NCBI GenBank assembly: GCA_030698625.1
Contig: JAUYMS010000021.1
Span: 6,227-70,226 of the forward strand
DNA length: 64,000 bases
Direction: 5' to 3'
Origin: Candidatus Omnitrophota bacterium
GTDB lineage: Bacteria; Omnitrophota; Omnitrophia; Omnitrophales; Aquincolibacteriaceae
Of the stretch, positions 1,669 to 55,800 are shown one piece after another. Each line of letters starts with the position of its first letter. Within the stretch, counting starts at the first letter, position 1. Both the position numbers and the translations under genes were made by a program. The notes below the pieces were generated by a model. It was given only the letters and a program-made list of their open reading frames with translations. It searched no databases and was not told where the DNA came from.

Positions 1669-1671
1669 TCT

Positions 1672-12923: not shown

Positions 12924-12976
12924 GGCACGCTATTCTAATCCTTTCACCCCCTGGGGCAAGGCAAATATCCTTATTC

Positions 12977-13004: not shown

Positions 13005-13073
13005 GGGATGTTTTTTGAAACATCTTATCTCAAAACGAGATACAATTATTCCACAGGAAAGAGGCGATCTGTA

Positions 13074-13247
13074 GTGCCCAAAGTTGATATCACCGATAAT
13101 GAGCCGCTAGAAAAGGCTCTGAAGCGTTTAAAGAAGAAGATAGAGCGCGAGGGAACTCTGAAGATTCTCAAGGCGCGTAAGCACTTCGAAAAACCGAGTG
13201 AAAAAAGGCGCCGTAAGCAGCGCATGTCCAAGAAGAAAAAATTCTGA
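13074..13247 (+). CDS. rpsU: 30S ribosomal protein S21
   Basis: VPKVDITDNEPLEKALKRLKKKIEREGTLKILKARKHFEKPSEKRRRKQ. GTG start at 13074 with AGGAAAGAGG 10 nt upstream. The track ORF start at 13008 is an upstream extension. Confidence 0.9.
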   Translation: MPKVDITDNEPLEKALKRLKKKIEREGTLKILKARKHFEKPSEKRRRKQRMSKKKKF

Positions 13248-13262
13248 CCTAGGACCCACTCC

Positions 13263-14072: not shown

Positions 14073-14598
14073 CCGCTCCAAACTCCTGGAACTGGCCCGG
14101 GAGTCCATTCGTCAACACATCAGCACCGGAGATTCTCTCACCTTCGAGACCTCGGATCCCGAACTGACCATAAAAGCGGGCTGCTTTGTGACGCTGCGTC
14201 AGCGAGACTCCCTTCGCGGTTGCGTCGGGACCTTCGAGCCCACCAAACCCCTTTATGAAAATGTCTTGCGCATGGCATGCTCGGCGGCCTTTCAGGATGT
14301 GCGCTTTTCACCGGTCAGTAAGGAAGAGCTGCCGGGGATTCATATCGATATCTCCGTGTTGGGTGAGCCCTTCAAGATGAACTCCGTCGATGAAATCGAG
14401 ATCGGTAAGCATGGCGTGCTTGTCCAATATGGCGACAGGCGCGGAACCTTTTTGCCGGAAGTGGCGGTCGAGCAGAAATGGAATGCTGCCGAATTTATTA
14501 CCTTTTGCGCCCGTGAGAAGGCGGGCCTCAGCCCGTCGGAATGCGGCAGAGCGGACGTCTACCTCTATGAGGTTCTCAAATTTTCTGAGCCTTCCTAG
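14050..14598 (+). CDS. AMMECR1-domain protein (AmmeMemoRadiSam system protein A)
   Basis: AMMECR1 hallmark LRGCVGTFEP, then FQDVRFSPV. Start placed at the internal Met 14050, overlapping the MEMO gene by 23 nt. Confidence 0.8.
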   Translation: MLDLSSNSRSKLLELARESIRQHISTGDSLTFETSDPELTIKAGCFVTLRQRDSLRGCVGTFEPTKPLYENVLRMACSAAFQDVRFSPVSKEELPGIHIDISVLGEPFKMNSVDEIEIGKHGVLVQYGDRRGTFLPEVAVEQKWNAAEFITFCAREKAGLSPSECGRADVYLYEVLKFSEPS

Positions 14599-14668
14599 CG
14601 CCGGAAGGAGAGATTGCGGCCCCATTTTGGCTGTGTTATCATCTTAAGTTCTTTAGTTAGGAGGGATT

Positions 14669-32925: not shown

Positions 32926-32945
32926 ATTCTAAGTCTATTCTGCAA

Positions 32946-33410
32946 GGACGGCCAGGAAACACTCCTCCGCAGGTTCCGACAGCGTTGTTCTCACCTCTCG
33001 GGTTGCGCCCACCGGGAGACGCTTCGCGAGGCAAAAACAAGTCTGTCCGAAACGCTACGGATTTCTTGGCCTATCCTGCCCATCAAAGTCCTGCCGAAAA
33101 CCGGTGACTTTGATACACGCCGATACGGCCAGCGAGCTCCTCCGCATGTTTCTGACAGCCTTGTTTTCACCTCGCAGGCCTGGGATGTTTGCGGCGAAAG
33201 GAAGGACGGCCAGGGGATACTCCGGAAAAACAATTAGCGCTGTTTGCGGAGACGAGGTGATAAATTTTTGGGGCGACAGTCCCAAAAATTAACTCCGAGC
33301 GCAGCAGCGCGTTTTGGAGGAGTGTTTCCTGGCCGTCCCGCGCTAGCGTTTCGGACGGACTCTTTTTTACCGCGTAGCGCGCGTCAGAGGAGTGTTTTCG
33401 GTTCGTCCTT
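32946..33410. repeat. MITE-like element copy B (composite or nested; 23-bp perfect terminal inverted repeats)
   Basis: Terminal inverted repeats GGACGGCCAGGAAACACTCCTCC (32946-32968) and GGAGGAGTGTTTCCTGGCCGTCC (33316-33338). The inner 33133-33334 is homologous to the copy A core. Extra 12-bp inverted repeat gtccgaaacgct (33045-33056) / agcgtttcggac (33345-33356). A further repeat-end-like gaggagtgttttcgg sits near 33388. Confidence 0.6.
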
Positions 33411-33447
33411 CGGTGAGTGAAGGAGAAATACCTCTATGAGGGCGATG

Positions 33448-34471: not shown

Positions 34472-34508
34472 CAACAACCGAGGAAGCAAAATCGAGGTTT
34501 GACAGGAC

Positions 34509-34544
34509 AAAACCCCCGCCTCACCGGCGGGGGTTTTGTATTTG
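34509..34544 (+). terminator. rho-independent terminator after comEA
   Basis: Stem cccccgcc (34513-34520) / ggcggggg (34526-34533), 5-nt loop, then ttttgtattt. A-run on the 5' side means it may act bidirectionally. Confidence 0.6.
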
Positions 34545-34768: not shown

Positions 34769-34846
34769 ATGAAATCGAGACGTCTACTAAAACTCATAGC
34801 CATTGTCACATCACTTTGTTTTCTCTGTGAGCAAACCTTGTATGCC
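34769..34846 (+). other. signal-peptide-like N-terminus of giant protein (MKSRRLLKLIAIVTSLCFLCEQTLYA)
   Basis: Basic n-region, hydrophobic core, A-x-A-like end. Read from sequence. Confidence 0.5.
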
Positions 34847-37800
34847 GATATGGCAGCGAGCGTTCACCGCTTTGCGAATGCTAGCAAAACAGAATTCGAT
34901 ATCCCTGCATCAATTCAGGCGACGCTTCCGTCCGAGCTAGGGTTTGTTGAGGAAGTCTGGATTCCCGCGGAGTCCCCTGAACAATTCCGTTCTGTCGTTC
35001 TGATTCAGGATGCCCACGGGCAGTACGGTGCCCAGAAGAATATCGAAGGAGTTCTCGAGTTTCTTCGCGAAAAATACAAGCTCTCTGCGATTTTCATCGA
35101 GGGAGGTGCAGGGCGCCTCGAACCGGAACGCTTAAGATTTTTTCAAGAAGACGAGTTCAACCGCGAAGCTGCCGATCTTTTGACTCGCGAATCCGAGATC
35201 GGCGGCCCTGAGATCTTTCTCCTACTTGACTCGATCGCAAGACGAAAACCCGTTCCGGCTTTTGGCGCTGAAGTTCCGGATCTTTACCTCGACAACCTCG
35301 AAGCTTACCGTGCCGTCATGGCTCGCAAGGAAACCACCGATCGATTCCTCGAAAACGAAATTTCTACACTTGTCTCCGACTGCTCCCGGATCTTCAGGCC
35401 TGAGCTGCAGAAGTTTTTCAAGAATTGGCTTCTCTACGAACGGGAAGAAGTCGATTTTAACCATTATTTGGATGTGATGACTAAGCAGGCTCAAGAGAGT
35501 CTCGGCGTGGACCTCAGAGATCCTCGCGAACAGATCGAATGGCCGATGCTCGTGCGTCTGGCTGAAGTGAGAGCCAGAGAGAAGGGGCTCGATTACGAAA
35601 AAGCGAATCAAGACCGGCTGCGTTTGCTTGAGTGGAGTCGGGATAATCAGATCGATAACTCTCTTAGTGGATTCCTCGAAGCGGAGATGAGGAAGGAAAT
35701 TCAGGACAGGCGCTCTTTCTGGGAGCTTTTTTATGCCGAAGCCAATCCGAAGGGGTTTGAGTTCGGTGAGTACCGTGACTTGGCTCTCTCGGAAGGGTTC
35801 CATATTCTGCGGAGTGAAATCGATTCCAAAAGACTCTTTCGCGAGATCGATCTTCTTCGTGACCGTACGCTCGTGGCGTTGGCCACCGATGCGGCCGAAC
35901 ATGAGCTCGTGAACCGGTTTCGTACCCACCTGCTCCTAAGAAAACTCTTCAAACTCGAACTCAGCCGTGAAGAGTTTGATCTGCTTAAAGATTCGGCCTC
36001 CGGCACCGTCATGGCTTCTAGTGAAGTTGAGGAAGTCTATGCGGACGCTCTTAGATTTTACCAACTGGCTCGCCGACGCGAAGACGCCATGGTCGAACAG
36101 ATTTTTAAACAACTGCAGGATGACAGCAGTCTCAAAAACATCGCACTTGTCGCCGGCGGGTTTCATACCCAGGGGCTCACGTCGCTTCTGAGAAAATCCA
36201 GAGTCCCTCATGCCGTTGTTAGCCCTCATATCCGGGAAATAGAAGATCACGACAAATACCGCGCCTCACTCATGGGCGAAGCGCCTGTCCTGGATCTGGA
36301 GCAGTATCACTTGCGCGGAATCAACTTTATCGTCGCCGACGGCGTATGGAACGGCCGTCTTCCTCAGGATGTTCGTGATCGCCGCGCCGCGGTTGTTAAA
36401 GCCGTTATTGCCAGCGTACTTGCACGCGGGGCGACACTTTTGAGTGGGCCCAAAAGGTCGGAACTGCGTGCTTCCGAACCGACTCCCGCAGCAATGGAAG
36501 CCGCCCGGCAAATGTACGATCTTGTTAGTGCTGACTTCGTCGCGACGCGTGCCATGCTCGCAACCGTTCGTGACGGAAATGTGCCGGCGATGTCAATCGT
36601 CGCCATGCGACTTCTTGACATTGCTCTTGAGGAGTTTCCCGCTACGCGGGCCGTCGACAATCTCGGTGCCTTGGGATCTTATCTGGCCAGCTTAAAACGG
36701 TCGGCACGGTCCGAGCTCAGGACGTCTTCGGGGCGTAGAAGGACCCATCGCGTTTCCGTGAAACCCGATCTGACCTATTCCGTGGAAATGGTCGAAGACC
36801 TCTTGGATCCAAAGAATCAAATCCTTAAGGAGGAAATCAGCAATAGAAAGACCTTGGTCGTACTGGATCGCGGCATAGGCGAAAGGCAAATAGCAAAGGT
36901 TAAAGATTACTTCAGGGAATCCAAAATCAGGGCTGCCTTTGTCGAACTCGAAGGTGGAGAGGCCGTCAAAGACGGAGAAGAAGGGAGAAAGAACATAGAC
37001 TTAATAGCGCGTAAAGCGGAGGCATTCGAGTTGGACCGTAAAGCGGTCATTGTGATAGTCGGAGGCGGTGCCGTGCTGGACGTGGCGGGGCTTGCGGCAA
37101 GCCAACTTCATCGCGGCGTTCCCTATATTCGCATTCCGACTACATTGCTGGCCCAAATCGATGCCGGAATTGGCGTTAAGACCGGTATCAATTACTTTGA
37201 TCAGAAGAATTTTTATGGGACCTTTTATCCGCCTCAGTCGGTATTGGTGGACCCGCAACTCTTAGCTTCCCTCGACGAACGGCAAATGCGCTCGGGCCTG
37301 GCCGAAGCCGTGAAAGTCGCGCTCATGAAAGATTCCCGCTATTTTGACTTGCTCGAGCGAGGTTATGAGGACGTTTTGGGTAAGAATTTCAGCGGTGATA
37401 GTGCGGCGCTCGATATCATGTGGCGCTCCATCATCCTGCATCTCGAGCAAATCAAGACCGACCCCTTTGAAACTAAACTCACCCGGCCGCTCGACTACGG
37501 CCACGAATACGGGCATCGCTGGGAAAGGGTAACGCTCGAGAAATTCGGGAAATTCGGCGAGGCGCACGTCGCGACCCACGGCGAGGGCGTATGGTTCGGC
37601 ATGGCGATAGACACGGTGATTTCCTGGCAGCGGGGTTATATTACCGCCGCACAGCGCGATCGCGTCCTCAACCTCATAGATGCCATTGGTTATAACAACA
37701 CTGCGGTCGGTGCGATTCCTACCTATGACTCCCGTGCTACGGTCAACGCCCTTTGGCCGGGCGTGGAAAGTTTTCGCAGGCATCTAGGCGGCAAACTCAC

Positions 37801-40800
37801 GATATCTCTGCTGGCCGCTATCGGCGAGAAAAAAGACGTCACGCAACTGCATAAGGCAGCGCTGGGTAATGCCCTGCGTTTTCTGAAGAAACGCGCCGCG
37901 GTACGGTCCGAGCTGCGCAACGGGAATAAATTGGTTTTTGCGGGCCACAAATTGACCGAAGCCGATTTGCCCGATCCTGACGCATTCCGGATTTTGTTCG
38001 GAGAGGCGGGCGAAAAGGTTGATGCGGGGCTCGACCTCCCGCAGCGCTCGGAGCTGCGCTCGACTGGCTCGACTTCCGACGAGTTTGCCAAAGAGGAAAA
38101 CTTTCTCAGGACCGAGGCCATGATTGCCCATTTGTATACGGGGCGTGTCATCGAGTCATTGAGCCGAAACCAGATTCCCACGTGGATCACCGGTTTTTTT
38201 CATGACAAGGTTGTTAACGGCAAGAAAAGAGAATCCGTCCTGACAGCGGCGAGGCGGTATTTTCGGCGCAACCTGGCCAGGGGCGTTGCATCTGTGTTAG
38301 GGTTGACGGGCTACTGGGGAGCGATCAAATCGACTGCGGCCGACCGGTATATTTTTTGGCTCGACAACGACGAAGAGCTGCAAGCCTCGGGCATGGAGCC
38401 CGTTCTTATTCACGGTGATGATTACCGCATGGACAAGATACCGTTGAGTGAAGCGCCTTCCGACATCCGCGAGCAGTTTGAAACCCTTCAGCATGCGATG
38501 ATTTTGGCGGAGCGCTTGAAGTTGGAAGACGCCGACAACCCCGAGGGAGATGCCATTGCCCAGGGAATCAGGCAGTCCTACCGCGAATTCTCAAGACGCC
38601 TCTACGACCTCGGACTGCGCATTTACGATCTGCATGAAGGTAAGGTCGGGCTGGAATTGGAACAGGTCTTCGATTTCCGCCGCCTTGCCCACCTCATGCT
38701 TGCACTCAAGGGCAAAATTCACAGCACCTATGACCGCGGCCTCATGACCGAAGCGGAATACCGTGAAGCGCATTACCGCCCGATCGCCGATTCGCGGACC
38801 CGCAAGCTTCACCGTATCGCGCTGGGTGAGAACGGCCGGCCGCGCTATCTCCTGGGCCTGGCGCATCCGATTTATGCGGAAATCGTCGAAAACGGCGGAG
38901 GGGCGGCCGTATTAGAATTTCGCCGCCAGACAGAAAGCGGCAAAATTGAAGAAGTCTCGCTTAATGAAATCGACGACAAGACGGAGTTCTTCGAACGTGA
39001 CGTGGCGCTCGACCCCGAAGTAGACGTTCGCGCTGACGGTAGCCGCCGCTACCGCCTGCATTTCGGCCGGGAGATGCGCTATGAAGAAGACTCGCATATC
39101 GATCTTATCCTTTCGGCGGACGGCACAAAGCTAACGATTGAATACGAACAAGGGGAGCCCGCTCTTTACGTCTCTATTCCTTTAACGAAATGGCGCATTC
39201 GGAACCGTTTCGTGGTGGGGGCTGCGGTTGCGCTGCGGCACTGGACCCGGGGGTGGATCAATCTTGTGCGTAGTACGCCGACCGGTCTCGAGCCCGTGGC
39301 CCTCAAACATTATGACTTTCCGGCCAAAGTGTTGATCCGCCACAAGCCGACGCCCACCAAGCTGTATTTTGTCGAGTCTCTCCTGCTCCCGTTGCTCAGT
39401 GACGAGTACCCCGAAATTCGTTATCCCGGTGTCTACGACGATCTGGTGTTCAACAGCGGTAATTTCTGGGTACGGCTGCTGCGTGTGATGCACCGCGCTG
39501 AGGCAGCGGAACCGGGCCGGAAGGGCCCGCTGGAAGATGTCAAAAACATGCGCACGGAACGCCACTTTGTGCTCGAGGACGGCCGTCTCCAAGAGCGAGC
39601 CGGCGAATCGCGAGTCGTCTTGAGCACCCACAGCCGCATCGAAGAGCTTTTCCGCTTGTGGCTTTACGATTACCTGAACGAAGTCGAAGCGGCAGACACT
39701 ATTGAGGAGGAATTTGCGATGGATTCGCGCGCCCTGGATTCTGAGCTCAACGATGTGCTCCGCCGGACCATCGAAGAAAAGATCCGAAAAGCCGGGCTTG
39801 AGCTAAATGCGACCATTCATTCCGTCAACGGCGTTCAGGCGGCAGAGGTCGGCGATCTCCTGATCAAATTTATGCGCGTTCCCAAAGAAGAAGGCGTTTA
39901 TGAATTGAGTCCGGCCTTGCAGCGATTCTATGAGGAGCGTATCAAGCCGGGGGCTGGAATGGAGTTCATCGCAGGCTCGCTTGTTGATCTGTCGGGGCTT
40001 GGGCCCATCAGGCTCCGGGATGAAGACGGGCAGGAGCAGACCATTCGGCTGGGGACTGTGCTCGTGCAGCCGCGGGCCATGAGCCTGCGCGAATTTCTTT
40101 GGCGTCTCGACGAGGGGATCGAGCAGGCGCGCGCCTTCGCCGACGGGGACCGCGAACGGGACTACATGCGCTTGGCCGAGTCTTTGCTCGAGCAATCGAT
40201 TCGAGACGATATCGCGCTGGGGCGGCAAGGCCTTGTCAACACCCGGCCGCACCGCAACTTCCATCAAAAGGACGTCTTTACGCGGCACGGAACGGCCATG
40301 CCGTTTCATGCGTCACTCAGCAGTTTGAGTGTCCGCATGGAAGATTACGATCCGGCGGGCTATTACCGGGTTCTCGATGATACGTCCGGAGGGAAGTCCG
40401 TTGTTCCGCCGCGTTTTCAAGCCACCTATCGCAAGCTGCTCGACCGGTTGCTGCCGAGTAAGAAACGGTTTGAGAGGCGTATTTTCGGCAGGAATCCCGA
40501 GAAACACCGTGTCTCGCGCACGATAGACTGGGAAATCGCCCGCGCTGCCATCAACTACATCGCAGAGCGTATGCTTCCCGTGAAGTTCCGTCTCCTGCGC
40601 GAGCGTCAGATCGAGCCGCTATTGGCCTCCGATAATGCGCTTGCGGAATTTAAGGGCGTTTCGTTTGAAACGGCGCGGAAGCGGCTGCTCGCTTATGTGT
40701 TTATGGTTAAAGAAACGCTTGCCTACGGAAAGACAGCTCACTATGCCGCTCTTGAAGACGCCTATGTCGACCTGCTCGGGGATCCCGCTGCGACGACCGG

Positions 40801-43800
40801 AGATGAACTTCTCAGACTGCTCAAGAGCAGCTTCGAGGCATCCCGTCAAAAGCACGGCTCTCTTCGCGACCCGAGTTCCCGAGATTCGCTGTTTATCGCG
40901 CTCTTTTTGAGGGATGCTACCGAAATTGTGGGACAAGGTCCCCAGCGCTCGGAACTCCGGGCGGACCGCACGCTCGGTGAAGTGCTCGATTCCATCATTG
41001 ATGACACACAAACAGAAAAGTGGACACGCGAGCGTTGGCAGGATGAATTTGAAATCGTTCTGAAATACGTTCACCCCGACCTCGTCAAGGAGGCGGGAGC
41101 CCCCGTGCCGGAACGGACGGCGCTCGAAGCGAGAGCTGTCGAGATTCGTGAGGCCGATCAAAGCGGTGTTATGACGACGCTCGTCAGCAATCTGCCGCCG
41201 CCGGGCGGTTTTTTCGGCAGCGGCGGCGCTATCGAGTTTGACCTTTTCAAGATGTTATTTACCTCTTATGCCGCGCATCTCAACCGCATCCTCAAGGGCG
41301 TGCAGGAAGATGAATCTCTCGGAGAAGTCGAAGTGCCGACGGAAATCGACATTACCGCGCCCATTGAAGAGCAGCATGAGCTTTTTCGCCATGTCCTGCG
41401 TTTGACAGAAAGACAACGCGGATACAGCATTAACTTTACGCTGCTTGTCGCGGGTCTCGATCCCGATGAGATCAATAATCCCGGCGCAGAGTACACGCCG
41501 GCCGCGGCCCTGATCCTGAGGCAGGCTGGGTTCCATGCCGCCCATTTTGCCAGTGACATGGCCCGAACCTTTCGTCCGGAGGCGGAACCTGTACTCGTGG
41601 ATCCCGAAGATGTTTTGATTATATCCCGCTTTAATCCTATTCGCCACATCACGGTCAAATCCGCTGATGGCGGGTATCCTCCGTATCTCGTGGTGGAATT
41701 CAGCCGTGCATCCGGTGAACAGATCAGCCGGTTTCAACGTATTCATTTATTGAAGGCTGCATTGCCCGACCAACCGGTTGCCCAAGAGGTTACGAGCGAG
41801 TTCGTGCGTAGTGGTTTCGTGCATGAGCTTGGGGGCGAGTCGGGGTTAAATTCCTTTGCCTTTGATTACGACACAGCTCCCGAAGAACGCGCGGCGAAGA
41901 TCGCCCGCTTGAAGGCACTCGCCGAGCAGGAACTGCTCCTGATCCAGGACCGGTACATGCCGGAGGTGACTCAGGAGACCATTGAAAGATTCGCGAAATT
42001 TGTCGGCCGCTCGGAGCAGGAAAGGCATGCCATGGCGTTGGGTTATCCGCATATTGTGCACGAACAGAAGCTCGGGCGCGAGCGTACTCACTTTGCCAAC
42101 AAGACGGGTATCGCATCCCCGGGGCTTGGTGCCAATGACGACGTTCAGACACGCCGCTTTCGCCGCTTGCGGGTGTTTTGGGAACAGCGCAATCTGAGCC
42201 GCTTGAAGGACGCCATACTCTATGCCGGGGAAGAGGAGGAGTCGGCACGTCGTGATATCTCCGATCGGGTCAGGCAAGGGAAGTTGGAATTGCCTGAGGG
42301 TGACGGCGCGGAAAAGAAATTCGAGGAGGAGGTCGCGGCACTCACCGCGGATAGAGAGCGCCTAACGGTTTACTCGCCGCTCGTGGCCCTGTATTTGGCT
42401 GCCGACGGTGATGGGAATTTTCTCATTCCCGATAACGCGGCTGATGCCTATCTCGCATGGCTTGAGGACCTCAGCAAACAAGGTCTGCAAAAGAAATTTG
42501 CCGAAGCATTGAAAGAGGCCAAAGCCGGAATCAAACCGGCCGGTGAAACACGGACCGACGGACTGATTGCCGATGAAATCGGGGATATCCTTGAGCTGGA
42601 AGTCCTCTACCGTCTTCTCTATGAGCATCTTCGAACAGCCTCATTTTTTGATCGCGAGAGCCGGTCGAAATTTTGGCTCAATCTGAACCATTATCACGAG
42701 TTTTACCGAAACAGCGATGTGACTTCAAGCCGTCTCTGGGCGCTCGCGCGCTCCCATTTTGAAGACAGTATTCGCAGCGATCTTGGCGATGCCTGGAACC
42801 ACCTGCAGGAGTATTTCCTAAAGCCTCAGGATATGTCCGCAGGCGCAGAGGTCAATGCGGCTGCCACCATGATCGCCAATCAGGACCGCAAGTTGTTGCC
42901 TGCGGAACTGCCCGATCTTCTTCGCGGCGCGACAGAAAAGATTCTCGGTTCACAGACCGTTCATCTGACGAGTGCAGCCACAACGGCAGATAGGTTGCCC
43001 GGTATTTTGAGCACTTTTCTCAAAGGTCTAGACCGCTTCGACCTGCCGGCGCTTTCGCTTGCGAAACGAGAGGCTCTGAGTCGCCGTCAGGCCTTTTATG
43101 ATGACCTCATCCGTATCCGAGAACTTTATGAGACCGGTCGCTTTGAACAGGCGCTTCGCCTTACGAATGGCTTGCTGGGTCATGGCGAAGATGCGCCCAA
43201 GCTTTCGAAGAAACAGAGGAGAGCTTTAAGGAAGGGAAAGGAAGTTGAATTGCCGGAGGCCCCGGCCGGACTGCTGGTGCCTGCAGCCGAAGAATCGTTG
43301 CGCGAGATGCAGGCGCGTTTGCGCGAGGCGATGGCAACGGCCTCGACGGCAGCTCCTCAAGCCGATGAATCCTCTGCGGTCGTCGCAGAACCGGCTGATG
43401 TCGCAGTCGTTGAGCCAAAAGCAGTTCCCGCTCCGAAAGAAAAGCGCGAGCTTACGCCGAAACAAGAATTTATGGCTCTCGAACAGATCAGTCCGGGACT
43501 TCGGAATCTCATCGGCGAAATACTGGAGCCCTCCGCGATCGCATCCAGAAGCAACAAGCGATGGATAGCGCTTCACAATGCGTTCTTCAAGTTTTTCTTC
43601 TCAGATGACGGCAGTCAACCCAATGAATTAGAAAAGCGTGCCTGGGATATAGTGTTGGCCGCTTTTAACCGTGGTTTGGCCAAGAAACTGGCGGATGGCC
43701 GAATGGTGCCCGAGATGCGGATGGGCGATTTCTTCGATATGGCTCAGGACTACGGTAAAGCGACCGACAGACCGGAGTCCCAAGCGGATATCATGGTGCA

Positions 43801-46800
43801 GCCGACCAAGACACTGCTGCTGATGTCTTCATCTATGGCGCGCGTTCTGACGGGATTGATTGCCGAGGAAGCCGAGACACAGCCGGCAACAACAGATCTT
43901 GCGCCGCCTGCCGCGAATATGAGTCCCGCTGAATATGCTGAATCCTATCGGCAGAATATTCTCATTAATGGAAATCGCCTTCAGGACTTCTTGTCGCATG
44001 TCCCGGGTGCCTTAGTCGGTTATAAGGTAACGGCCGACATCAAGCAGAAGGGCCAGGGCGCGCCGCTCGCTTTGGCCCCCATATGGGCCTTCCGCCAGTT
44101 CGGGTTACAGCCTACGTTCCGCGTGATTCCCGACTTTGTAAGCCAGGCAGGGGAAATAAAGAATATTGCTTATATCGAAGCGACCGAAGGAAATCCGCCG
44201 GCCGTGAGAGTGGAGTTTAATAAAGCCTTGGAGGATCCGCGTACCGGGCAGTCTTTTACGGATGTTGCGCTTTTCGTGGTTAGAAACCCTTGGGCCGACT
44301 TCGCGCGATCAAGCGACAGCTTGGAGGACGTTGAGTTTGATACCGAAACCGTAAGGGGCTATGCATTCCGACCTGGGGATGCCCAAGTTGAGCGCACCCA
44401 AAAAATCCGTCAGTTGAGACAAGCCGCATTGGATCAGAAAGTCGTCTTGCGTGTTCCGTACTTATTGCCGCTGCATGAGGGGGCTGTAAAGCGTATTGCG
44501 GAAGCGATGGGACGTACGGCAGCAGAGCGGTGGGCCGCGGAAACGTACTTTGCGCTGGGCTTCAGTGACCCGAGCGGCAATACACCGCGGCGCATTGAGA
44601 GGTTTCCCGATCCGGAAAGGTCTCAGCCATTAATAGAAGGTGCTCAGACTATTGGTGACGCAGCTCTGGCCTTCAGTGACGGCGCCCGCGCGCGTATTAC
44701 TATTTTAGAAAGCAAAAAGAATTTGATTGCGCTCTTAGCGCACCCGATTTTTGAACCGTTGATGCGGCTCATGACGGCCCGTGACGCCAAGGGCGAGTGG
44801 GTCGTCAGTGTGCGAAGCGCCGGAAAGGTGGCCGCACAACTTGATCGATTGGCCGGTGACGTGATTCTGCCTGCGATCGATGATATCGCCAAACAGGCGC
44901 CCGAGATCCAGGATCAAGCGGCGCTTGCCCGTTTCGCCGCCGAACTCAATCTGGCCGCCCTCACCCAAGTCCCGAGAAGGATATATCAACAGCCCGACAT
45001 CAATGATATCCGCATACGATTAGTAACGGAAACCGGTCGGGCTTGGGATGCGGATCTCAGCAAGTTTAAGGCTGTCGTAACACCGCCTGGTTCCGAGAGG
45101 GACCAGACCCTTCGTGAAATTGCGGCAAAGGAAAGCCTCGTCATCGCCGGATTTGATCGTGAAGATACTACAGAGGAGCGCACCGCAGCCATGGCAGAAG
45201 CCTTAAGCGACTACCGGAAGAACGCCGAAGGGCTTGTCCTTCTGGATTTTTCATCGCCGGAAACATTGACGGCGTCAGCCCTGGATTTGGCGCATCGCTT
45301 AAAGACGGGAAGATCGCAGGCTGTCGAAGCGCGCCGCGCCTATTTAGAAGCCCTGGTTTCGCTTCGCAAACTCGCCGAAGCGGGGGATCAGTCGCGGGCA
45401 TTTACAAACGCCGCTGCTTTGCTTGCGACGCTCAACGACGGTGAGGATAAGGAGCGCGTCGAATTATTCCGCGGCCGCGTCCGTGCGGCACTCGTAGCTA
45501 ACATGCAGTCGCATCTGGATTCTGTGGCGGGTATGGTCACGGATGTTCACAAATCTTCCGGCGATATCGAAGCCGCGACGGCTGACGCGGTAAAACTTCA
45601 CGATTTATTGAGACCTCTCGTTGCCGGAGAGACCGGGCCTTATGAAACGGCGCTTGCATTCGCGCAGACCGGTTTGGAACGTAAGAGGGAAGCGGAGCAG
45701 CGGACCGCGGCTACTCGCGGCGCAGATCTTAGCCTCTTGGAAGGGCATCTGGAACTTGCCGCAGTGGCCGACAAACTTGAGGAAGCCGAGCCCGAGTGGG
45801 ATAAGGCACAGGCGATTATCCGGGAGGTCAAATTCGAGGAAGGCGACGAGAAGACAAAGTTTGAGGGGCTCATTGCGGCAACGGAGAAAAATGTGACGGC
45901 ACTCAAGCGGAAAAAACAGTTTGCAGTCGAACTCGCGACATTGCAAACGGATGGGAAGGCAGCTTACCTCAAAGCGCAAGCGTATGCCAAGCATCTGAAC
46001 GATGCCGATCCGGATATAGTGCTTGTCGAGCATATGATTGAATTGCTTATCGTTGCACAGGAAACAAAAGAATTGGCCGATTTTAGCGTGGCTGACCGGT
46101 TCTCATACCATTTGTTGGAAACGCGGGTCTTTAGGGCTTACGGGGCAAACGATCTTGCAACGCTTGCGGCGGGCAATGCTCTGATAGTCCGGGAGAATAT
46201 GGAGAAACGGGATTACACGGTGGAAATTGCACTCGAAGAACAAATCGAAAAACTGGATGAAGCAAACGACGTCCTTTTACGCCGGCGCGAGGAGCGTCGT
46301 ATCGATGAAATCCTCAAAAAGATGCCGGAGCGTGTGCGGCACGTAAGCCCCACAAGCTATGAAGCTTTTGCCAAGGAGATTGCTCAAGTCCGTTCCGATA
46401 TCGAAGGCCTCGCGCAGTATGATCATGCACGCATGCAGGGAACACTGGCCGCAAATCTAGATGCAGTTGAAATTATCTTTGAGGGCCGTAGGATTCGAGC
46501 CCGGATTGCCCGAAGTGCCAATGAAAGCCGCAAGCCGGGCGTCAAGAATCAAGCCGGTCATTTTCAGCGTGCGCGCACAGAAATCGCGGGGATCATTGAT
46601 CGGCTCGTTCGCCGTTTCGGCAGACCCGCTCACACTACCGCAGATGAGCTGCGAGCCGAACTCGATCGCGCCGCAAGTGGTTTCGATAAGAAGAAAAGAT
46701 CCGAGCTTCGAGTTGCCGAAGAAGTAGCCATTCTTCAGCCCGGTGAGAGCGCCTACGATGCTATGTTTAAAAACGGGGTCGCGGGAGGGCTCGAGGCATT

Positions 46801-49800
46801 GCGCGATTTTCTGGAGGAACGTTTCTTAGAGGGATCGGAAACGCCCTATGTGGTAAGGATTGTGCCGACCTCGACCGAGGAGAGAGCGGCATTGGAGGCG
46901 GATTCGGAAATCAGCGGGGTATCACCTCTTTATTCGGGGCCTGAGGCGGCCGACATTTTGAGCCGGCTGCGGATCTCGCAGATTTATCTGAACCAGGCAG
47001 ACTTGATTGAGATTTCTCTTTCCGAAGCGATTCCGTTATTCGGCAGATCCACAGATACGATTTCCATTGTCGGAGATGCCGACTTTTTCGCAAAGCTTCG
47101 CAACAGAAGCAGCTACGCAGCAACCATTAAAAGAGACGGCTATACGCCGGTAGAACGCGATGACTATGACACGATTTTTACCCGTGTGCGGCAAGAAGAC
47201 TTCCATGTGCTGGAAAGTGGTTGGGGATTTAACGCCGCAGAGCACCGCTTGGCATTTCGAGATGCCTTTGGCGTCGATGCACAAGCTGCGGATCTCTTGC
47301 TTTCCGAGGGCGAGTATTTGGAGCTTGAAAGGAACCGCCTGAGTGCACGAGTTGAGGCGGATCAGCAGCAATTGCGCGAAGACCTGGGGCAGGCGATCGA
47401 AGCCACCGGCAAAGGGAAAATCTCGAAGCTTGCGAGCAGGGCCTTGGCGCGAGACGAAACGGCAATCCATGAAAAGATTGATGCCCTGCAAAGTCAAGTC
47501 TCATTGGATGAGCATGAGGCTCCGCTGCTGTCGGGAACGCCGGAGACTGTCTATCAAACCGCCAAGCGAAAAGCCCCTGAAATATCCGCCCGGATTAAAT
47601 CGATTCAGGAACGGCATGCGGCACGGGAGGCGCTTGTCGGTGAGCTCGAATCTGCTCAGAAACTTCTCACCGAAGCTGTCCGAGCCAAGCAAGAATCCGG
47701 AGACATTGAATCCGAGATTGCCGATCTCGCGACCTTGTTCGAAGGGTGGGGTACTGTTGTGGACTATGCCGCCGAGATCAAGCGGATAACCGAAGCGCTC
47801 GAGGTCGCGATGGAGACAATCAGCAAGAAAATTGCCGCGCTTAAAGAAAGCGAAGTAATTGAAAAACCTCCCCTCATCGATGAGGCGACAGACTCCTTGC
47901 CCGCAAATGTCTTACTCAGGGAATTCCAGGCTGCTGTCGGGGAGTTGGGCGATCATTGGGCGGTGCAGGTACTCGAAGCGAGGCATGATCCGCGCTGGGA
48001 TCCGACTGCGAAGATAACCTTACCGGACCAGGGGTCCCAGGTTGCCGGTGCGGTGCGGGACATTCAGAAATTTGTTCGGGAAGTTCAAGCCATCAAGCCG
48101 TTTGCGGATGAAGAAAGCGGTAGGGAAGGCATTCGTGAGCTCGCCGAATCGTTTTCTTCAATCTATCGAACCATCGGCCAGCGTGCCCTCCGGTACGTCG
48201 GTATCGCGGGTACACGTGAGGATGCTGAAAGAAAGTTGAGAAAACAGGAGGAGGCCGCCCGCCAGCGGTTCATGCAGCGGCAAGATACCGGTATTCACGG
48301 CCCCGCTTCTAATACGGCTGCCCGGCGCGCTAAAGACAGGGCCAGAGATAAGACTCAACGTGCTCGTCAAAAGCGGAAGCATATGGACTATACCCTCTCC
48401 TACCTGACGGTGGCGCTCAGCATTGTTGAAGCTAATTTCAGGATGCTAATGCAGAGGGTGGCCTATGAAAATGCCTTCCTTCATCCGGTTAGAATCGAAG
48501 CCGAACCGAACCGGGAGAAGGTCAAGGAGGCGCTGAAATACATAACGCATAACCTACATGAGCGGGCGGGGGGGACATACAAACATCCGCCGCTGCGTAT
48601 GGGCATCGGCAGGCATGCGACTGACCTCGCCGAAGAGGTGGGATCCTTGATCGCGAATGTGGAAAATGCCGCCGACTTACAAACAGACGTGATCAATCTC
48701 GTCTTGAGATTAATGACCCTTGTCTCAAACCATGATGTGCTTTTTCCCGAACTCCTAGACAATGTGGGCGGCGCATACAAGGTGCAGTCATTCCTGACGG
48801 ATGAGATGATTCACTATGTGACCCATCTGCTTTCAGCCGCAGCTATTTCCTATGAGGAATCCGACTTGCGTACGAAGTTCGGCCTTCCGGATAATCTGGA
48901 TGGGACGGATGTCCTTGCGCAGTTAATTCACGAGGCCAAGGCGAATTGGCGAATAGCGCTTCACTCGGACGTGGAAGGAAAGGATACAGCGACACATCGT
49001 GAGAATCTTGCCGAGGTGTTGAAGCTGATCGCGTTTTCCAAAATAGTTCAAGATGACGATGACCTTTACGACAGATTGACTAAAACGAAGAGCTTCCCGG
49101 CAACCGAAGCGCTTATCGCCGAGAACGCGGACCGAATCGAGGCACTCCTCCGGCGCTCGCGGGAGGCCCATGGCCCCGACGGAATTTTTTATATTCGATT
49201 TCCTGCCGATCATCCCGACCTTCCTTTGGCAGAATTAGCGTTCTCCGCGCCGTTGGGGTATCTGCACGTATTAGCCGGTCCGGCAAGGACTCCCAATGAA
49301 CAGCATTCCTTGAGCGGCTATCCGGTGATCGGAAGCAAGGGGAAGAAGCCCGTTTTCTATGTGGAATATCCCTTCGACTACGCAGAACCGCAGCCGGTGA
49401 CGGCGTTCTTTTACAACTTTGCAGAGGAGCCGGAAATGCTGAGCTTCGCCCTTACGCTTAATAAATTGCGCGAAGAGGCGTCATTGGCGTCTGTATGGCC
49501 GGCCCTTGAAGGGCTCACGCGATGGATCGACGATCAGGCTCAGATCGTGACAATGGTCAACGCCGAAGGCAAGGAACTGGACTCAATGGGCTTTATGGCC
49601 CGCCGGCACCTGGAACGCGTGCTGACCTTAATTGCGGATAAGGTCGGTAAGACTGCTGCGCTGACGGCCGAGAAAATCGAATCGACTGACGGTAAAATGG
49701 CGCCGCAATACCGGGTGAAGATTGCTCATGAACATGGTTCCTCGATCGGCGAATGGGACGAGAGCGAGTATGACAACCTCGTATTTCTTATTAAGTTGCT

Positions 49801-52800
49801 CGGCCATGTGAAGCTTGCCGGCGAAGGGGAACCCGCGGAGCTCGAAGATGCAGAAATTTTCAGGACCCGCCATGATCACACGCTCGTCGGGGAGATGGCT
49901 AGAGACATCGACGGACGCACCGGCTACTTTGACGTTCGCATTCAGGGGCGCGGCGAAGAACCCGAGGAAGTCCTTATGACTCTCAAAAAGCCCGTGCGCT
50001 CAGAGCTCAGGGCAGAAGAGGCGGCCGTGCTGCAGCCGGGACAGACGGATTATAATCAGTTATTTAAAGACGGCATGCAATCAGGCCTAGACCGGCTAAG
50101 CGGCTTTCTTGAAGATAAGCTGCTGGAGGGAGGCGACTCGCCGTTTGTCCTTCGCGTGGTTCCGAGGAACCTTGAGCAGTGGAATGCACTGGATGAATAT
50201 CAACAGTTAACCGGTGTTGCGCCGCTTTACACAGGTCCGGAGGTCGCGGCGATTCTTGCCTCGCAGGACATCACAGAGATCTATCTCAATAAAGAAGATT
50301 TGGTCGAGATAGCATTTACCCCGTCCGGCGATGTTTTTGGCCGGCCGGCCGACACCGTGACCGTCATCGGCGATGCCCAGCTCTTCGAAAAACTGAGAAA
50401 CAAAGAGGCTTACCGCACGGCTATTGCGCGGGATGGTTATGCCGCCTTAAGTGAGGAAGATTACGATACGGTTTACACGCGCATTCGGCAGGAGCTCTTC
50501 CATGTATTGGAAAGCGGTTGGGGTTACCGGAGTGATAGTCAGCAGGCAAAGTTTCTGGAAACCTACGGAACCGATGCCGAGGCGGCTGAACTCCTTCTTT
50601 CCGAAGAGGGATACCGGGATTATGAGAAGTCCGTCTTGCTCGACACAATCGGTGTAGATCAGACGCGATTACGGCATGCACTCGAGCAGATCGCCGAGCC
50701 CATTCACAAGGGAGCTATGAATCCGCTCCTCGAAGCAGCTCTTCAGAGCGAGGAAACCGAGATCCGCGGGGAAATTAACCGTCTGGTGAATCACGCGGCT
50801 TCTGTGAGGCCGCTTCCTCTGCAGCGGACAGATATTGAGCCGGTTTATGCCGCGGCAGACGCTGCCGTCGTTGCCATAGCGATGACGATCGAACAAATTC
50901 AAGCGCGGCATGGCGCACGCGCGAAGCTGACCATCGAACTGGCGGGGTTTCAGGAGCTCTTAAGCGAAGAACTTGCGTCACGTGTGAGCGGTCTTACAGG
51001 AGAGGGCTTGCAGCAAGTTCGGGCTGAAGCTTTGGATCAAGCCTCGCGTCAGCTTACCTCTGAGATCGCATCGTTGGCCGGCACTTTCGGCGGGTGGGGA
51101 AATATTGCCACACATCAGGAAGAGCTAAAGAGAATAGCCGGCGAGTTGGAAACCCGCGCAGCGGCGATTGGCCGAAAAATCCGGGCGATCACCCTGCCGG
51201 AAGTTGAGAAAGAAATCCCTGCGGTTATTGAACCCGCGGCAGACGAAGGCCTAGCCTCGAATATCGTGCTGCGGAAGCATCAGGAACGGGCCGCACAACT
51301 GATGCATCACTGGTCCATGGTTGAAGCGGCAAAGCAGCCGGACCGCGACAGAATGGCGGCGAAAATGCTGGGCGAGATGCGCGATCATGCCGCGGCGATC
51401 GCGGCGGCCCCAGCCTATGCCGACGATGAATCGGGCCGTGCGGCCATTAGCGAGCTTATAAAAGAGTCACATGCCCTGTCGCGCGCCTTGCGTCTCGAAC
51501 TTCACGCCATGAAGGATGCCATTCAGGCTTCAGCCGACCAATTGCCCAGGGTTCTCGACGTGATGAGCCGGGCAGTCGAGAAGCAGACCGCGCGGGCACT
51601 ATCCACCATGCGGGGTAGATCCGGCGGTTCGTCAAGACGGATGATAACGAAAGTGATAGGAAAAGTGAATGAGGAGCGCGAGGCCTATGCCAGAAAAAAC
51701 GGCACAATCATGCAACTGATCGTTGCCGTCGCTCATTTTAATGAGATGACACAGGACCTTACTGGAGACGCCGTGAACATCGGCCTTCTGGATTTCGATG
51801 AGTCTGACCCTGTTGAGCTGGCTGTCTGGAACGCGGAGCCGGTCCGCTCAGAGGTTAACCGGGACGTGCTTATCCGTGTTTTGAGGCGCCTCGCCTCGGA
51901 CCTTCGTGATGAAGAGGCCCATGACTATGACCGCGACGAAGGCGGAATTCCCGGAATCGAAAAGAGGTTACCCATTGGCGGGCCTTCATTTGGAAGAGCG
52001 CACGGTGAGGCGGCCGCGCGCATCGAGTCTTTGATCGACGACCTGCCGACGGATACCGATGAACTGCGCGGTCAATTGACACGCGCCCTTGTTGACGTGG
52101 CGAATTTGCTCAGTATGACCTTTACCTTCTATACACAGCTTCTCCAGGGTGATGCGAAAGCGGATCGGGAAAACAATTTCACCACTTACGATATGCTCGG
52201 TGCCCTTGTGGCCTCATACCGCGCCGCGGGTCTCAGTGTCAACGAAAGCGCTATCCGCGAAATGATGGGTTACAGAAAGGCATTTGAGGCGGATTTGACA
52301 TTGCGTCATGCCGCCATGTCGGCACGGCGTGTCTGGATCCTGGAGCGAAAGAAAGACGCCGCGGGAGAAAATGCGCCGCTCCACGATGAAAATTTTTCGG
52401 AGTATATGCGCTATGTCGCTTATCTGAAACTGCTTCGAGACGAGAAGGCGCTAAGGGATGAACTGGAGAAGGCAGCCGGCTTTGCCGGTATTTATGCGTT
52501 AATGGAGAAACACGCAGACCGTATCGATGCGTTACTCGACGAGGCGCGACAGGCTCACGATGGCAGACTGAGCGGTGAGATCAGCATTCCTCAGAGTGAG
52601 AGCACTCTTCCGGGATTCGTCATCAATGCGACAAATGCAATGGGCGTAATTCATGAGTTGCAGATAACGGGTCAGAGCGATGTCGCCGGCCGCCTCTTTT
52701 TCGATGCGCCGCGTGCGGATTTCACCGGCGGTGTAGAGTATTATATCCAGTGGTTTGAGCAGGACCGGGATCCCACAAAGCGTTTAAACGCTCAACACCT

Positions 52801-55800
52801 TCCGGCCAGCGACGAGGGCATGGCGCTCTATGCTATCGGGCTCAGAGACTTTATACGGCACTTCGAGGCCGGCGACTTGTCGACGGAAAACGCCCGGATT
52901 GCGGCGGCCATCATGCCGACTGTGACCAGCCTCCTTGCCCGGCTCGAAAAACGCGCCCAATTAGTTGAAATGGTCAATACCGAAGGCAAACGTCTGGATG
53001 CCGCTCAAGAAGACGTGAGGCGTCGCGTGACGGATCTCTTCAAAAAGCTACTTTATCGAAAGGCAGATTGGCTTACTCTGACGGCAGAAACCAAAGAGAT
53101 TCGCGTGCAATCAAGCCCGGTACATCCGACAGAACAGAAAAGCGTAACCCGCTATTCCGTAACCGAGAAGATGCCGCAATCAGTCGTTACCTCGGACGAC
53201 CTCCCGTCAAATTACGACAACTTAGTCTTTCGTTTGAAGCTACTGGGAGACGTCAAGAAGAAAGTCGGCGATGCTCTCGCTGACATCGGTGAGGAGCGTT
53301 TCAATACCCACCATGATCACCTGCTGGTGGGGGAATTGACATTCGAAGAGTCGGTAAGATTCGGTATTGAAATCCAGGGCCGCGGGGAGAACCCGGAAAG
53401 CGTCAAAATTACAATTCTTGCAATGGATGCGGATGTCACGATAAGCCGTCCCAGGGGTATTCGACGCTCCGAGCTCAGAATGCAGGACGACGATGATGAG
53501 GAGGATGCTAAGCTGACGGTTGCCGAGGTCGAGCGCATTCTTTCCGAAAGCCCGAGTGTTGAAAATCTATACCGCATTATGGATAAGCTCACGGAAATCA
53601 ATAAAATTCCCGGTTCGAGCAAAAACAATCTGAGCGTTCCTCCTGCGATACTTTCATCCCTGCTCCTTCATTATGATGCCGCCGAGCGCGTGCTGAAGCA
53701 GGGGCAGGGCCTCGCCATGCAGTTGACTTACATGGGCGCGATCGCGAGTTGGTATCGCCGTCACCAAGACGACATTCTGGCCGCCTATGTCACGTACGGA
53801 GACGTCACCATCCTTGAAGCCCTTCGTGATTTCGCGGCTATTTATGCTCCGCAGGATCACATAACGAGTGCTATTCAAGCGGCGATATTTGAATTCAAGG
53901 CTCCGGCGGTTCAAGAGGAGAAGGCCGTGGAGAGTGAGGACGATGTCCTGCGCTTGAACGGTTTTAAACTGAAGGTGCGATACGCCGATCTCGAAATGCG
54001 CCGCCGGGCGACGGAAGACGTGCTCTACGGAGAATGGGCGCTCGCACCAGCTGATGCCTCGAAGCTTATGGGTATTGACGGCGACCGCCTCCGGGCGAGG
54101 CGCGCGATGCTCATGAAATATTTCAAATCCTTGCAGCCGTCTCCCCATGTCATTTTTGACCCCATTTTAAGTCCGGCACTCTTGCGTTTAAGGCTTACAA
54201 GTGTGCGAAATACGGTACTCGCGTTCCCCGAGACACTCGAGGAATTTGAAAAGCAGCTCCGGGAAGAATTGGCGAAAGAGGGTCTCGCAAGTGATGGGGA
54301 ATTCTTCAAGCAGCGTGATGACCTCTATGGCCGCGAGATGTGGGAAGCCGTAGAAAACGAGATTCGCCTGGAAAGCGAGACCCGGGCCGAATCCAACCGC
54401 GAACGTTTGCACCGGAACCTGCTGGTGCAGCAATTCCGCGAATGGTTCCTGGGCCTGTCGCCGATATTGCCGGAGGAAGCCATGCCACAAAATGTTTTTA
54501 CGGATGACCGGAGCTCCTTTGTTGTTCCCTTTGACGTCGTGCGCCATGAATCCCGCGCGACACTCTCGATCGCACCCAGGTTTCGCAAGGATGAGAACGG
54601 TGAGCCCCGCACGATTTGGCTGCGTGCGGCGGAGCACCCCGTGACCCGCGAAAAGATGATCACGCTTCACCTTCGCCCCGACGGCGAGGTCCTGGGTTAT
54701 GCCTTATGGGATGAATACGACCAGAAATTTCGTGGATATGAAGGACCGATGCTCCACACTCAATATGCCAATCCCGCTCGGCGTCACTTCGAGTCCTATG
54801 TCTATGATCCGTACAACGTCACACCGATGAAGCCGCGCCGGATGAAGGTTCGCGGCACGATTCGTGAGCAGCGGCGCATCACCCTGCTGCCGTCGTTTGA
54901 GGGCAAAGATTACAGCAATGTCTATAACGTGAATTTCAAGACGAAGGAATCCGTCAAGGTTGAGACTGTTGCCATTGCCGGTGAGAGCCGTTTTATCCTG
55001 CATCTGGCCGCAAAACCGGGGAGGCGGGAGCAAAAGATCGTACGCTACGCTCATGATGACGAAGTGAGGCTGCTTACTCCCGAAGACGAGTTGGTGAAGA
55101 GGTTAGCTTCCGATTGGACAAAGGAAATGCCGCGCGCAATTGCGTTGGACCGGACTAAGGCGGGCCTTCTGAACTTTCGCAAAGAGAGCGTCGATCAACA
55201 GGGCTTGACGGTGAGACTGCCCAAGGTCAAGAAGGATTGGGATCGCCAGGTATTTGTGACCTTCCACCTCCAACGCGTCGACGGAAAACTCCAAAAGGTG
55301 ATTGATGTTTATGGGAGAAACAAGAAATGGGATGAGGAAGGCCGTCCTGTTGAACATATCTGGAGCGGATATTACGACGAGGATGAGGATGCGATGATCG
55401 TCTTTGACGATTTTGAGCGGCGGCGTCTGGTCGGCCACGAGCGCTATGATATCCAACTGCATGCCTGGAGTTTGCGTTATGCCGAGCGCCCGGGGGATAT
55501 CTTTACACCGGCCGAGACTGAGCATCTGATTCGTCTCGCGACACTCGATAAGCCGCATACTTTGGAAGAGGTGTGGAAAAATTTCGGAGGTGAAAATTAT
55601 TCAATCGAGTATCTGGAAAGTGTCTTCAAGAAGCTGCAGTCGCCGCGCTTGACGCCTGCGAGGCGCCTTGTCCATGTCGGTAACAACCGGTACTCGTCTC
55701 TGCTGAGGATCCGGATTACCCGGCATAATGAATACACGCACAATCACCGGCGTTATCATCTGGCCTACGACAACTACGACCTGGAAGACGTAACATCCTG

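Follow-up and report, generated by a model that had tools for sequence, protein, structure and literature searches.

A giant Omnitrophota protein with an EboD-like cyclase module between RSELR sites: a possible exported polyprotein

The giant gene and its modules

The 64,000-nucleotide stretch of Candidatus Omnitrophota DNA considered here (contig JAUYMS010000021.1, positions 6,227 to 70,226; hereafter the window) contains the 5′ part of a giant gene whose product carries an enzyme module of the dehydroquinate synthase (DHQS) superfamily between copies of the pentapeptide RSELR. The reading frame is open from a stop codon at 34706 through the window end, its first ATG lies at 34769, and the product is at least 9,744 amino acids (aa) long. 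The DHQS-like segment, at 36767–37860, is located inside the same unbroken frame and constitutes module 3 of the protein, the first cargo module of the proposed precursor. The features recognized along the gene are as follows.

34769–64000, forward: giant open reading frame (ORF) of at least 9,744 aa that continues past the window end, with three cysteines (aa 17, 20 and 205)
34769–34846, forward: predicted Sec-type signal peptide, MKSRRLLKLIAIVTSLCFLCEQTLYA (from hydropathy and by eye)
34847–36454, forward: N-terminal domain, TIKI/erythromycin-esterase/ChaN-like by model and invariant residues (PMC6254334)
36455–36469, forward: RSELR site 1
36470–36706, forward: spacer peptide of 79 aa between sites 1 and 2, no family match
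36707–36721, forward: RSELR site 2, upstream flank of the cyclase
36722–37903, forward: EboD-like sugar-phosphate cyclase module of the DHQS superfamily, aa 652–1045
37904–37918, forward: RSELR site 3, downstream flank of the cyclase
37919–38044, forward: spacer of 42 aa, 3′ of the cyclase
38045–38059, forward: RSELR site 4, closing the 42-aa spacer
40946–40960, forward: RSELR site 5
46697–46711, forward: RSELR site 6
46712–49996, forward: module 7, ~1,100 aa, no known domain; paralog of module 8 and homolog of module 2 of the related protein P0124
49997–50011, forward: RSELR site 7
50012–53464, forward: module 8, paralog of module 7 (31% identity end to end)
53465–53479, forward: RSELR site 8
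57794–57808, forward: RSELR site 9
58478–58993, forward: MacroD-type macro domain, aa 7904–8075, ending 4 residues before site 10
59006–59020, forward: RSELR site 10
59090–59146, forward: strongly hydrophobic helix IMMGVIAVTVFLVYYFMVV, aa 8108–8126, 23 residues past site 10
63308–63322, forward: RSELR site 11

Pfam searches of the visible 9,744 aa recognized two domains only, the DHQ-synthase fold and the Macro domain, and a scan of the remaining RSELR-delimited segments against Pfam and NCBIfam at lax thresholds returned the Macro domain alone. The macro fold is an ADP-ribose binding or hydrolase domain. Here it makes up the last 170 residues of a 404-aa module whose first 220 residues are without a match.

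The N-terminus of the giant protein looks like a signal peptide, suggesting that the product is exported. Signal-peptide-like N-termini are also present in 75 of the 80 relatives described below, 60–80 residues upstream of the first conserved motif. The hydrophobic helix past site 10 is the sole internal transmembrane-like segment of the visible protein, with acidic residues on its N-side and basic residues on its C-side. If the N-terminus is exported, this helix would place the preceding part of the protein outside the cytoplasm and the remainder inside.

The cyclase module

The original prediction, made from the letters of the DNA alone, assigned 36767–37860 to a DHQS-like fold, and Pfam, NCBIfam and PDB matches bear this out. 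All of the sequence blocks on which it relied, GGGAVLDVAGLAAS, IPTTLLAQIDAGIGVKTGIN, NFYGTFYPP, SGLAEAVKVALM, LDYGHEYGHRWE and HGEGVWFGMA, occur in the forward-strand translation of the segment. The Pfam comparison that it had proposed as a check gave a strong superfamily match, with DHQ_synthase (PF01761; 5.9e-33, 113.4 bits, cut-off 24.2) followed by DHQS_C (PF24621; 2.1e-19, 70.3 bits, cut-off 27.6), both above their gathering scores, in the expected order and spanning the full length of the module. In NCBIfam, the best family is NF004852/PRK06203 (4.1e-91; profile positions 23–381 of 407), at 305.9 bits against a curated cut-off of 333, and the second is aroB (TIGR01357), at 206.9 bits against a cut-off of 305. 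Among PDB entries, the EEVS ValA matches best (1.2e-46, 162.7 bits), followed by plant DHQS (7.8e-38) and DDGS.

When the segment from one RSELR to the next (aa 652–1050) is aligned with 12 free-standing relatives of 356–412 aa, the match runs end to end, and the giant-protein copy keeps 72 of the 75 positions that are invariant in all 12. The remaining three carry the conservative replacements F to L, N to T and L to V, and the Thr of the second is the canonical DHQS residue at that position. The key residues are the loop that binds nicotinamide adenine dinucleotide (NAD), G765–G767, together with D798, K804, N814, E846, K849, H891, R906, D909, H912, H916 and H937. Those of the NAD loop and E846, H912 and H937, the Glu/His/His metal ligands, align with conserved positions of ValA, plant DHQS and DDGS; D798, K804, N814, K849 and H916 are kept as well. 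The statement that the domain is not a relic, with NAD loop and metal ligands intact, therefore holds up on exact alignment, and the module is probably a complete, active, NAD- and metal-dependent enzyme.

By closest match, the module belongs with the EboD (DEI synthase) clade of the DHQS superfamily, as a putative sugar-phosphate cyclase. Free-standing relatives score 344–626 bits on NF004852, and the Nostoc punctiforme member (P0076), annotated "AroB" and located among the tyrA, dsbA and trp genes of the scytonemin cluster, scores 625.6. Yurchenko et al. name this scytonemin-cluster "AroB" eboD and find the EboD clade distinct from true DHQS (PMC5133447); the best-scoring family is accordingly the EboD clade. 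A relative with 44% identity (P0007) sits in a cluster of DHQS, TatD, AP_endonuc_2 (a TIM barrel), UbiA and Phosphodiest genes, that is, an ebo operon. On its metagenome contig (L005), this ebo-type operon has a very long ORF on each side, one of 1,341 aa (1–4023) and one that is truncated by the end of the locus after more than 2,861 aa (11132–16095). The closest relatives of all (P0002 and P0005, 52% identity) adjoin genes for PFK, FBP aldolase, a TIM-barrel protein and a PHP phosphoesterase, with no aro genes adjoining. EboD is a mannose-6-phosphate cyclase according to Tanoeyadi et al. 2024, as cited in a passage of PMC12904256, and the carbohydrate-modifying role hinted at in the original prediction fits such a clade. 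Identity to EboD-clade members is 37–52%, and the module shares with them the invariant set RPLD[FY]GH..(G/A)H(R/K)xE, the metal ligands and the end-to-end length. It differs in having two extra loops and in being embedded in a putatively exported protein, whereas the others are free-standing.

Within the superfamily, two other identities were considered and rejected. The DHQS substrate pocket, which we take to be R-x-x-x-N-x-G-H plus Lys250 (Aspergillus nidulans numbering), is replaced by R-P-L-D-Y-G-H: Asp909 stands in for the DHQS Asn at position 268, Arg906 is one residue closer, out of register with Arg264, and His891 is found where the plant enzyme (3ZOK) has Lys. With the missed aroB cut-off, this rejects a true AroB. 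EEVS is rejected by His916, which is present (GHEYGH) where EEVS and DDGS have Pro (GHSFSP), and by a ValA match of only 162.7 bits. Alignment with the ValA, DHQS and DDGS types shows metal and NAD positions retained and DHQS-specific pocket residues altered. Of the "catalytically competent cyclase or dehydrogenase" originally proposed, the cyclase-clade fold and intact residues stand, while a strict dehydroquinate synthase does not.

The module resembles AroB, AROM and AroK/AroB in fold, Gly-rich NAD loop, Glu/His/His metal site and the equivalent of His275. As in AROM, the fold sits in a longer polypeptide. AROM, however, fuses the enzymes of a single pathway and is cytosolic and unprocessed, whereas here unrelated modules are separated by RSELR. 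The notion that AROM is the sole fusion of this fold is mistaken, as NCBIfam contains bifunctional AroK/AroB models. The 120 best database relatives of the cyclase are all 278–437 aa long, and the 80 best metagenome relatives lie in stop-to-stop ORFs of at most 529 aa (median 405). A metagenome scan with the spacer plus cyclase region gave no close relative, and the cyclase fold is absent from the first ~3,900 aa of 80 related giant-type ORFs. The giant-protein cyclase is the only embedded copy found among ~200 relatives with lengths listed or ORFs measured.

RSELR sites as module delimiters

Eleven exact copies of RSELR occur in the giant frame, where 0.04 would be expected from composition, and none in the other frames of the same strand. 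One-mismatch variants number zero against 2.2 expected. Codons differ among the 11 sites, indicating conservation at the protein rather than the DNA level; a DNA-level motif, such as a recombination or restriction site, is rejected on the same ground. The original prediction had seen the sites on either side of the cyclase (36707–36721 and 37904–37918), correctly so, and undervalued them: they are the more novel part of the locus and represent a family-wide module delimiter. No description of an RSELR or RSExR delimiter was found in the papers searched, the only hits being unrelated software names.

The sites coincide with module boundaries. Those around the cyclase lie 15 residues before and ~10 residues after the span of its free-standing homologs. 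Over the stretch that opens just behind one RSELR and closes at the following one, modules 7 and 8 are 31% identical by pairwise BLASTP, and since they are full-length paralogs over exactly that interval, the sites bound the unit of duplication. A profile search with these two modules among 1.84 billion representatives found a sole homolog, module 2 of P0124, a protein of 6,157 aa.

The same architecture in relatives

P0124, the single protein matched by that search, shares 28% identity with the giant protein in its N-terminal domain and 23–28% overall. It contains seven exact RSELR sites against 0.02 expected, and its orthologous module ends on RSELR at both sides. It also possesses a paralogous module pair of its own, each member of which starts directly after a site.

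Further relatives were reached through the N-terminal domain. A search of contigs with the single N-terminal sequence gave no match and a profile of the domain was needed; run against contigs from one genome per species, it yielded 148 relatives, of which the best 80 were analysed. These are almost all labelled Candidatus Omnitrophota. The same kind of search in a word-indexed protein database returned two matches only. Motif statistics were taken over 173,110 aa of ORFs that start with the N-terminal domain. In the 80 loci, RSE.R occurs 242 times against 4.2 expected (~58-fold), while RES.R, SRE.R, KSE.K and RSD.R occur only 1–6 times. The pentamers most repeated de novo are RSEVR, RSEAR, RSEMR, RSELR, RSEIR and RAEVR, and the family consensus is R-[S/A]-E-x-R. 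At least three RSExR sites are present in 28 of the 35 ORFs of at least 2,000 aa. Other ORFs of at least 300 aa in the same loci show about one tenth of the RSE.R density, and half of those matches are in family proteins split by N-runs. Information is confined to the five motif positions, and the surroundings are rich in Ala, Ser, Pro and Glu, as in linkers.

Segments between sites range from 3 to 1,383 aa. About a quarter are under 100 aa, some being only 3–20 aa long, and such short peptides may be spacers or released peptides. Among 20 enzyme-sized segments scanned, 11 have Pfam matches. These include two GT5+GT1 glycogen-synthase-like segments in which the domain starts at residue 6–9, an NAD epimerase from residue 17, an amidohydrolase, a radical SAM/SPASM enzyme and a class II aldolase, as well as HAD, PHP, 2-hydroxyacid dehydrogenase, GNAT and DUF7790 domains. 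The Pfam domains begin 6–19 residues after a site; that is, the inter-site segments equal whole enzymes.

Some family members depart from this plan. Five proteins of at least 3,300 aa (L026, L016, L071, L076 and L081) are without RSExR and instead repeat other pentamers, namely AASLG, GERTE/EQRNG and RAELR/RAERR, which may be alternative delimiters specific to their lineages. The TIKI-like N-terminal domain is also found by itself (P0123, 519 aa) or in proteins of 800–1,350 aa with one site or none (L010, L011, L062, L072 and L074), and the head is therefore not confined to giant proteins.

Exclusion of cysteine is a second shared trait. The giant protein has three Cys in 9,744 aa and none past residue 205, against 1.1% Cys in other ORFs of the window. 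Across the 80 relatives the mean is 0.14% versus 0.81% in neighbouring ORFs, and P0124 has none in 6,157 aa. An RSExR-bounded radical SAM plus SPASM segment of a related Omnitrophota giant ORF (L066:9823-11022) has eight Cys and is the sole Cys-rich one among 91 listed. Radical SAM/SPASM chemistry requires Cys for catalysis, and Cys appears to be retained only where chemistry demands it.

The N-terminal domain

The N-terminal domain is the only part common to all 80 loci. Across 70 sequences, A82, H83, E111, G166, E168, R437, G463, G464, H466 and one Pro are invariant, the Gly pair and H466 forming a GGFH466 block. The pattern is thus D/E-x-H (D81-x-H83), followed by E111 28 residues on and a later H466. 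The domain models as an alpha/beta TIKI fold, and its comparison scores are 10.4 with Bcr135, 10.1 with EreC, 9.6 with both ChaN and Bcr136, 8.7 with HopBA1, 8.4 with a TraB-family protein, 7.9 with RRSP and 7.0 with PMT. Jang et al. assign Bcr135, ChaN, HopBA1, PMT and RRSP to the TIKI superfamily and describe a 2His/2Glu catalytic set, represented by E3900, H3902, E3930 and H4030 in RRSP and including H85 and E113 in Bcr135 (PMC6254334). In the present domain, the invariant H83, E111, E168 and H466 would make up the corresponding set, and the spacing of 28 between H83 and E111 is that of both of these proteins.

Since the domain shares the 2His/2Glu sequence pattern with RRSP and Bcr135, and RRSP and Tiki are site-specific endopeptidases, it is a reasonable candidate for an endopeptidase that cuts RSExR. 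It differs from the known members of the superfamily (Tiki, RRSP, TraB/PrgY, erythromycin esterases, ChaN and HopBA1) in lacking a superfamily sequence-profile match and in carrying a ~280-residue helical insertion. A four-sequence profile of the domain likewise found no meaningful match among PDB sequences and Pfam.

Possible processing at RSExR

We lean, by a modest degree, towards reading the giant protein as an exported polyprotein that would be cleaved at RSExR, freeing an active EboD-clade cyclase along with the other modules. In such a scheme, a precursor with a Sec signal would be exported; a site-specific endopeptidase, for which the best candidate is the precursor's own 2His/2Glu TIKI-like N-terminal domain, would cut each RSExR; and the ~400-aa cyclase, the MacroD module, other modules and short spacer peptides would be released separately. 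DHQS-fold enzymes normally dimerise, and the freed cyclase could form the usual dimer. It could also work without cofactor turnover, since this class of enzyme regenerates its bound NAD+ in every cycle. Cleavage is favoured over a tethered scaffold by a motif that is invariant at 23–28% identity, by the frequency of very short inter-site peptides and by the match between sites and free-standing termini.

A fuller version can be put forward only tentatively. Here the precursors would be Sec-exported and cysteine-free, the TIKI-like domain would cut every R-[S/A]-E-x-R, and up to dozens of metabolic enzymes, here an EboD-like cyclitol synthase and a MacroD hydrolase among them, would be freed along with small spacer peptides, outside the cytoplasm or into prey. 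If so, a giant gene would be a single-ORF operon whose products separate after translation.

Several observations weigh against the polyprotein reading. Direct evidence of cleavage was found at none of the RSExR sites, to our knowledge no protease of RSExR specificity has been described, and a literature search for one found none. For the N-terminal domain, neither Pfam nor PDB sequences gave a match, even at E values up to 10, and NCBIfam gave none. Its single-sequence AlphaFold2 model was unusable (predicted local distance difference test, pLDDT, 38), and the six-sequence model reached medium confidence (pLDDT 68, predicted template-modelling score 0.62). Foldseek with this model found nothing in the PDB below E = 0.001, Ere-family entries being the most probable. 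No RSExR occurs in the first 2,300–3,900 aa of several family members, for example L026, L043, L071, L075 and L076, although the invariants of the domain are kept. Signal peptide and topology were judged from hydropathy alone, and the window ends before the C-terminal part of the protein. As for the enzyme, an exported cyclase would have to acquire NAD+ outside the cytoplasm, an objection softened by the regeneration of bound NAD+ at each turnover. The module carries insertions of 9 and 8 aa (LEKFGKFGE and YNNTAVGA) and falls short of the NF004852 cut-off although this is its best family. Of the ebo partner genes (eboA–C, E and F; TatD-like, UbiA-like, TIM-barrel or phosphodiesterase), none was found within 34.7 kb upstream or in what is visible of the giant ORF.

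Of the alternatives, a protein that is never cut is doubtful but has the most in its favour. RSExR would then be a linker or docking motif for a chaperone, translocon or surface partner, with the cyclase tethered in a megadalton scaffold. Both published accounts of Omnitrophota giants leave cleavage open (10.1101/2023.11.21.568195), the motif carries information in just five residues within a linker-like context rich in Ala, Ser, Pro and Glu, and no protease of matching specificity has been identified. A linker, however, needs no invariant pentapeptide across orthologs of 23–28% identity, and the common inter-site pieces of 3–50 aa make little sense as scaffold units. Sites that track the termini of free-standing enzymes also speak against it, and the dimerisation established for the DHQS fold would be awkward for a single tethered copy.

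It is unlikely that cleavage takes place through a separate protease, from another gene of the genome or from the C-terminal region past the window end (S8 or C39 domains, for instance), with the N-terminal domain serving as an esterase, an anchor or a cargo binder. West-Roberts et al. do report C39 and S8 domains in giants and propose that these process them, and not all members of the TIKI superfamily are proteases: it includes the Ere esterases, the haem-binding ChaN, and PMT, in which the motif is missing (PMC6254334). Moreover, the invariants of the domain persist in relatives without visible sites, and the free-standing 519-aa version exists. Against this, the visible 9,744 aa contain no peptidase Pfam domain, the N-terminal domain is the sole part shared by all 80 loci, and it has a full putative 2His/2Glu set with the spacing of RRSP and Bcr135 (PMC6254334).

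That the module is a genuine AroB for aromatic amino-acid synthesis, merely fused to a large protein, is highly improbable. NCBI labels the best family "3-dehydroquinate synthase" and His916 occupies the DHQS His275 position, where EEVS and DDGS have Pro, but the TIGR01357 score and the Asp909, Arg and His891 positions argue otherwise. So do the separation of the EboD clade from true DHQS (PMC5133447) and its mannose-6-phosphate cyclase activity as cited in the passage of PMC12904256, the neighbours of the nearest relatives (PFK, FBP aldolase, TIM-barrel, PHP or ebo operon, not aro genes) and a predicted location outside the cytoplasm. A catalytically dead sugar-phosphate- or NAD-binding scaffold, as the sub-cut-off equivalog score and two insertions might suggest, can be given equally little credence, with 72 of 75 family invariants kept, including all metal, phosphate and NAD-loop positions tested, and three mild changes, one of them to the canonical DHQS Thr.

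A motif that is ~58-fold enriched, kept across orthologs of ~25% identity and placed at enzyme termini supplies a definite rule by which such proteins can be divided in silico. It also offers proteomics and mutagenesis a hypothesis that bears directly on a question left open for giant proteins. Should cleavage occur, it would represent a large-scale polyprotein strategy in a cellular organism, and the exports of small, possibly predatory bacteria would then include a cyclitol-forming enzyme, a de-ADP-ribosylase and many sugar enzymes.

Comparison with known systems

Giant proteins of Omnitrophota with many metabolic enzyme domains have been described as "Archaeovorins" (West-Roberts et al. 2023; 10.1101/2023.11.21.568195) and "multi-enzyme metabolic clusters" (Nielsen and Lui 2026; 10.64898/2026.06.07.730766), and the cassette as such belongs to this known kind. 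The original prediction was right about the embedding of the enzyme; the surprise it attached to this is lessened by these accounts. Whether such giants function whole or cleaved has been left open, and lack of information on cleavage points prevented their cutting in silico and held up structural analysis (10.1101/2023.11.21.568195). The present protein is of the same phylum, judging by the relatives of its N-terminal domain. Described giants are very long ORFs (10,000 aa or more) tiled with several distinct enzyme domains; the present ORF, as far as the window shows it, has at least 9,744 aa, a predicted signal peptide and mostly unannotated sequence with two recognizable domains, the DHQS fold and Macro. 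GT5/GT1, radical SAM, HAD, GNAT and aldolase modules are found in its relatives and in those papers alike. In contrast, the main texts of the two papers describe no delimiting motif, TIKI-like N-terminal domain, cysteine exclusion or DHQS-fold domain.

The closest working analogy is provided by the MARTX toxins, giant secreted precursors whose variable enzyme modules are freed by a protease within the polypeptide that cuts the linkers, as is proposed here. One of their effectors, RRSP, has the TIKI fold (PMC6254334), as modelled for the N-terminal domain. Unlike them, the giant protein lacks RTX or glycine-rich repeats and an inositol-phosphate-activated C80 cysteine protease, neither RTX repeats nor C80 being matched by Pfam over the 9,744 aa, and it is devoid of Cys past residue 205. 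Its cut signal would be a strict pentapeptide rather than a Leu, its recognizable modules resemble metabolic enzymes rather than known toxins, and it has a predicted Sec signal in place of type I secretion. Viral polyproteins, such as those processed by picornavirus 3C and potyvirus NIa, similarly combine a short, near-invariant delimiter with short spacers and an in-precursor protease, for which the giant protein has a candidate. Here, however, the gene is bacterial and chromosomal, next to housekeeping genes, cleavage is proposed from sequence, and the protease fold differs.

Surroundings of the giant gene

The 34.7 kb upstream are ordinary chromosome, with genes for HisRS, AspRS, PhoH, YbeY, RecO, UvrA, GlgC, LptF/G and signalling proteins. 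The window gave no match in Rfam or tRNA scans. At 34507–34539, past a ComEA-like gene and ~230 nt before the giant ATG, a T run follows a perfect GC-rich hairpin of 14 nt (ACAAAACCCCCGCC/GGCGGGGGTTTTGT), which suggests that the giant gene has its own promoter. On the minus strand, at 35222–57601, many ORFs of 150–300 aa run antisense to the giant gene, inside the continuous 29-kb sense ORF, and these are most likely shadow ORFs rather than genes. Finally, the non-coding region at 32930–33420, between a CutA-like gene and an XRE/cupin gene, contains four copies of a ~23–31-nt element, GGACGGCCAGGAAACACTCCTCC, two in each orientation. One arm pair is 100% complementary, and the element, which has no Rfam match, may represent a small repeat or a structured RNA.

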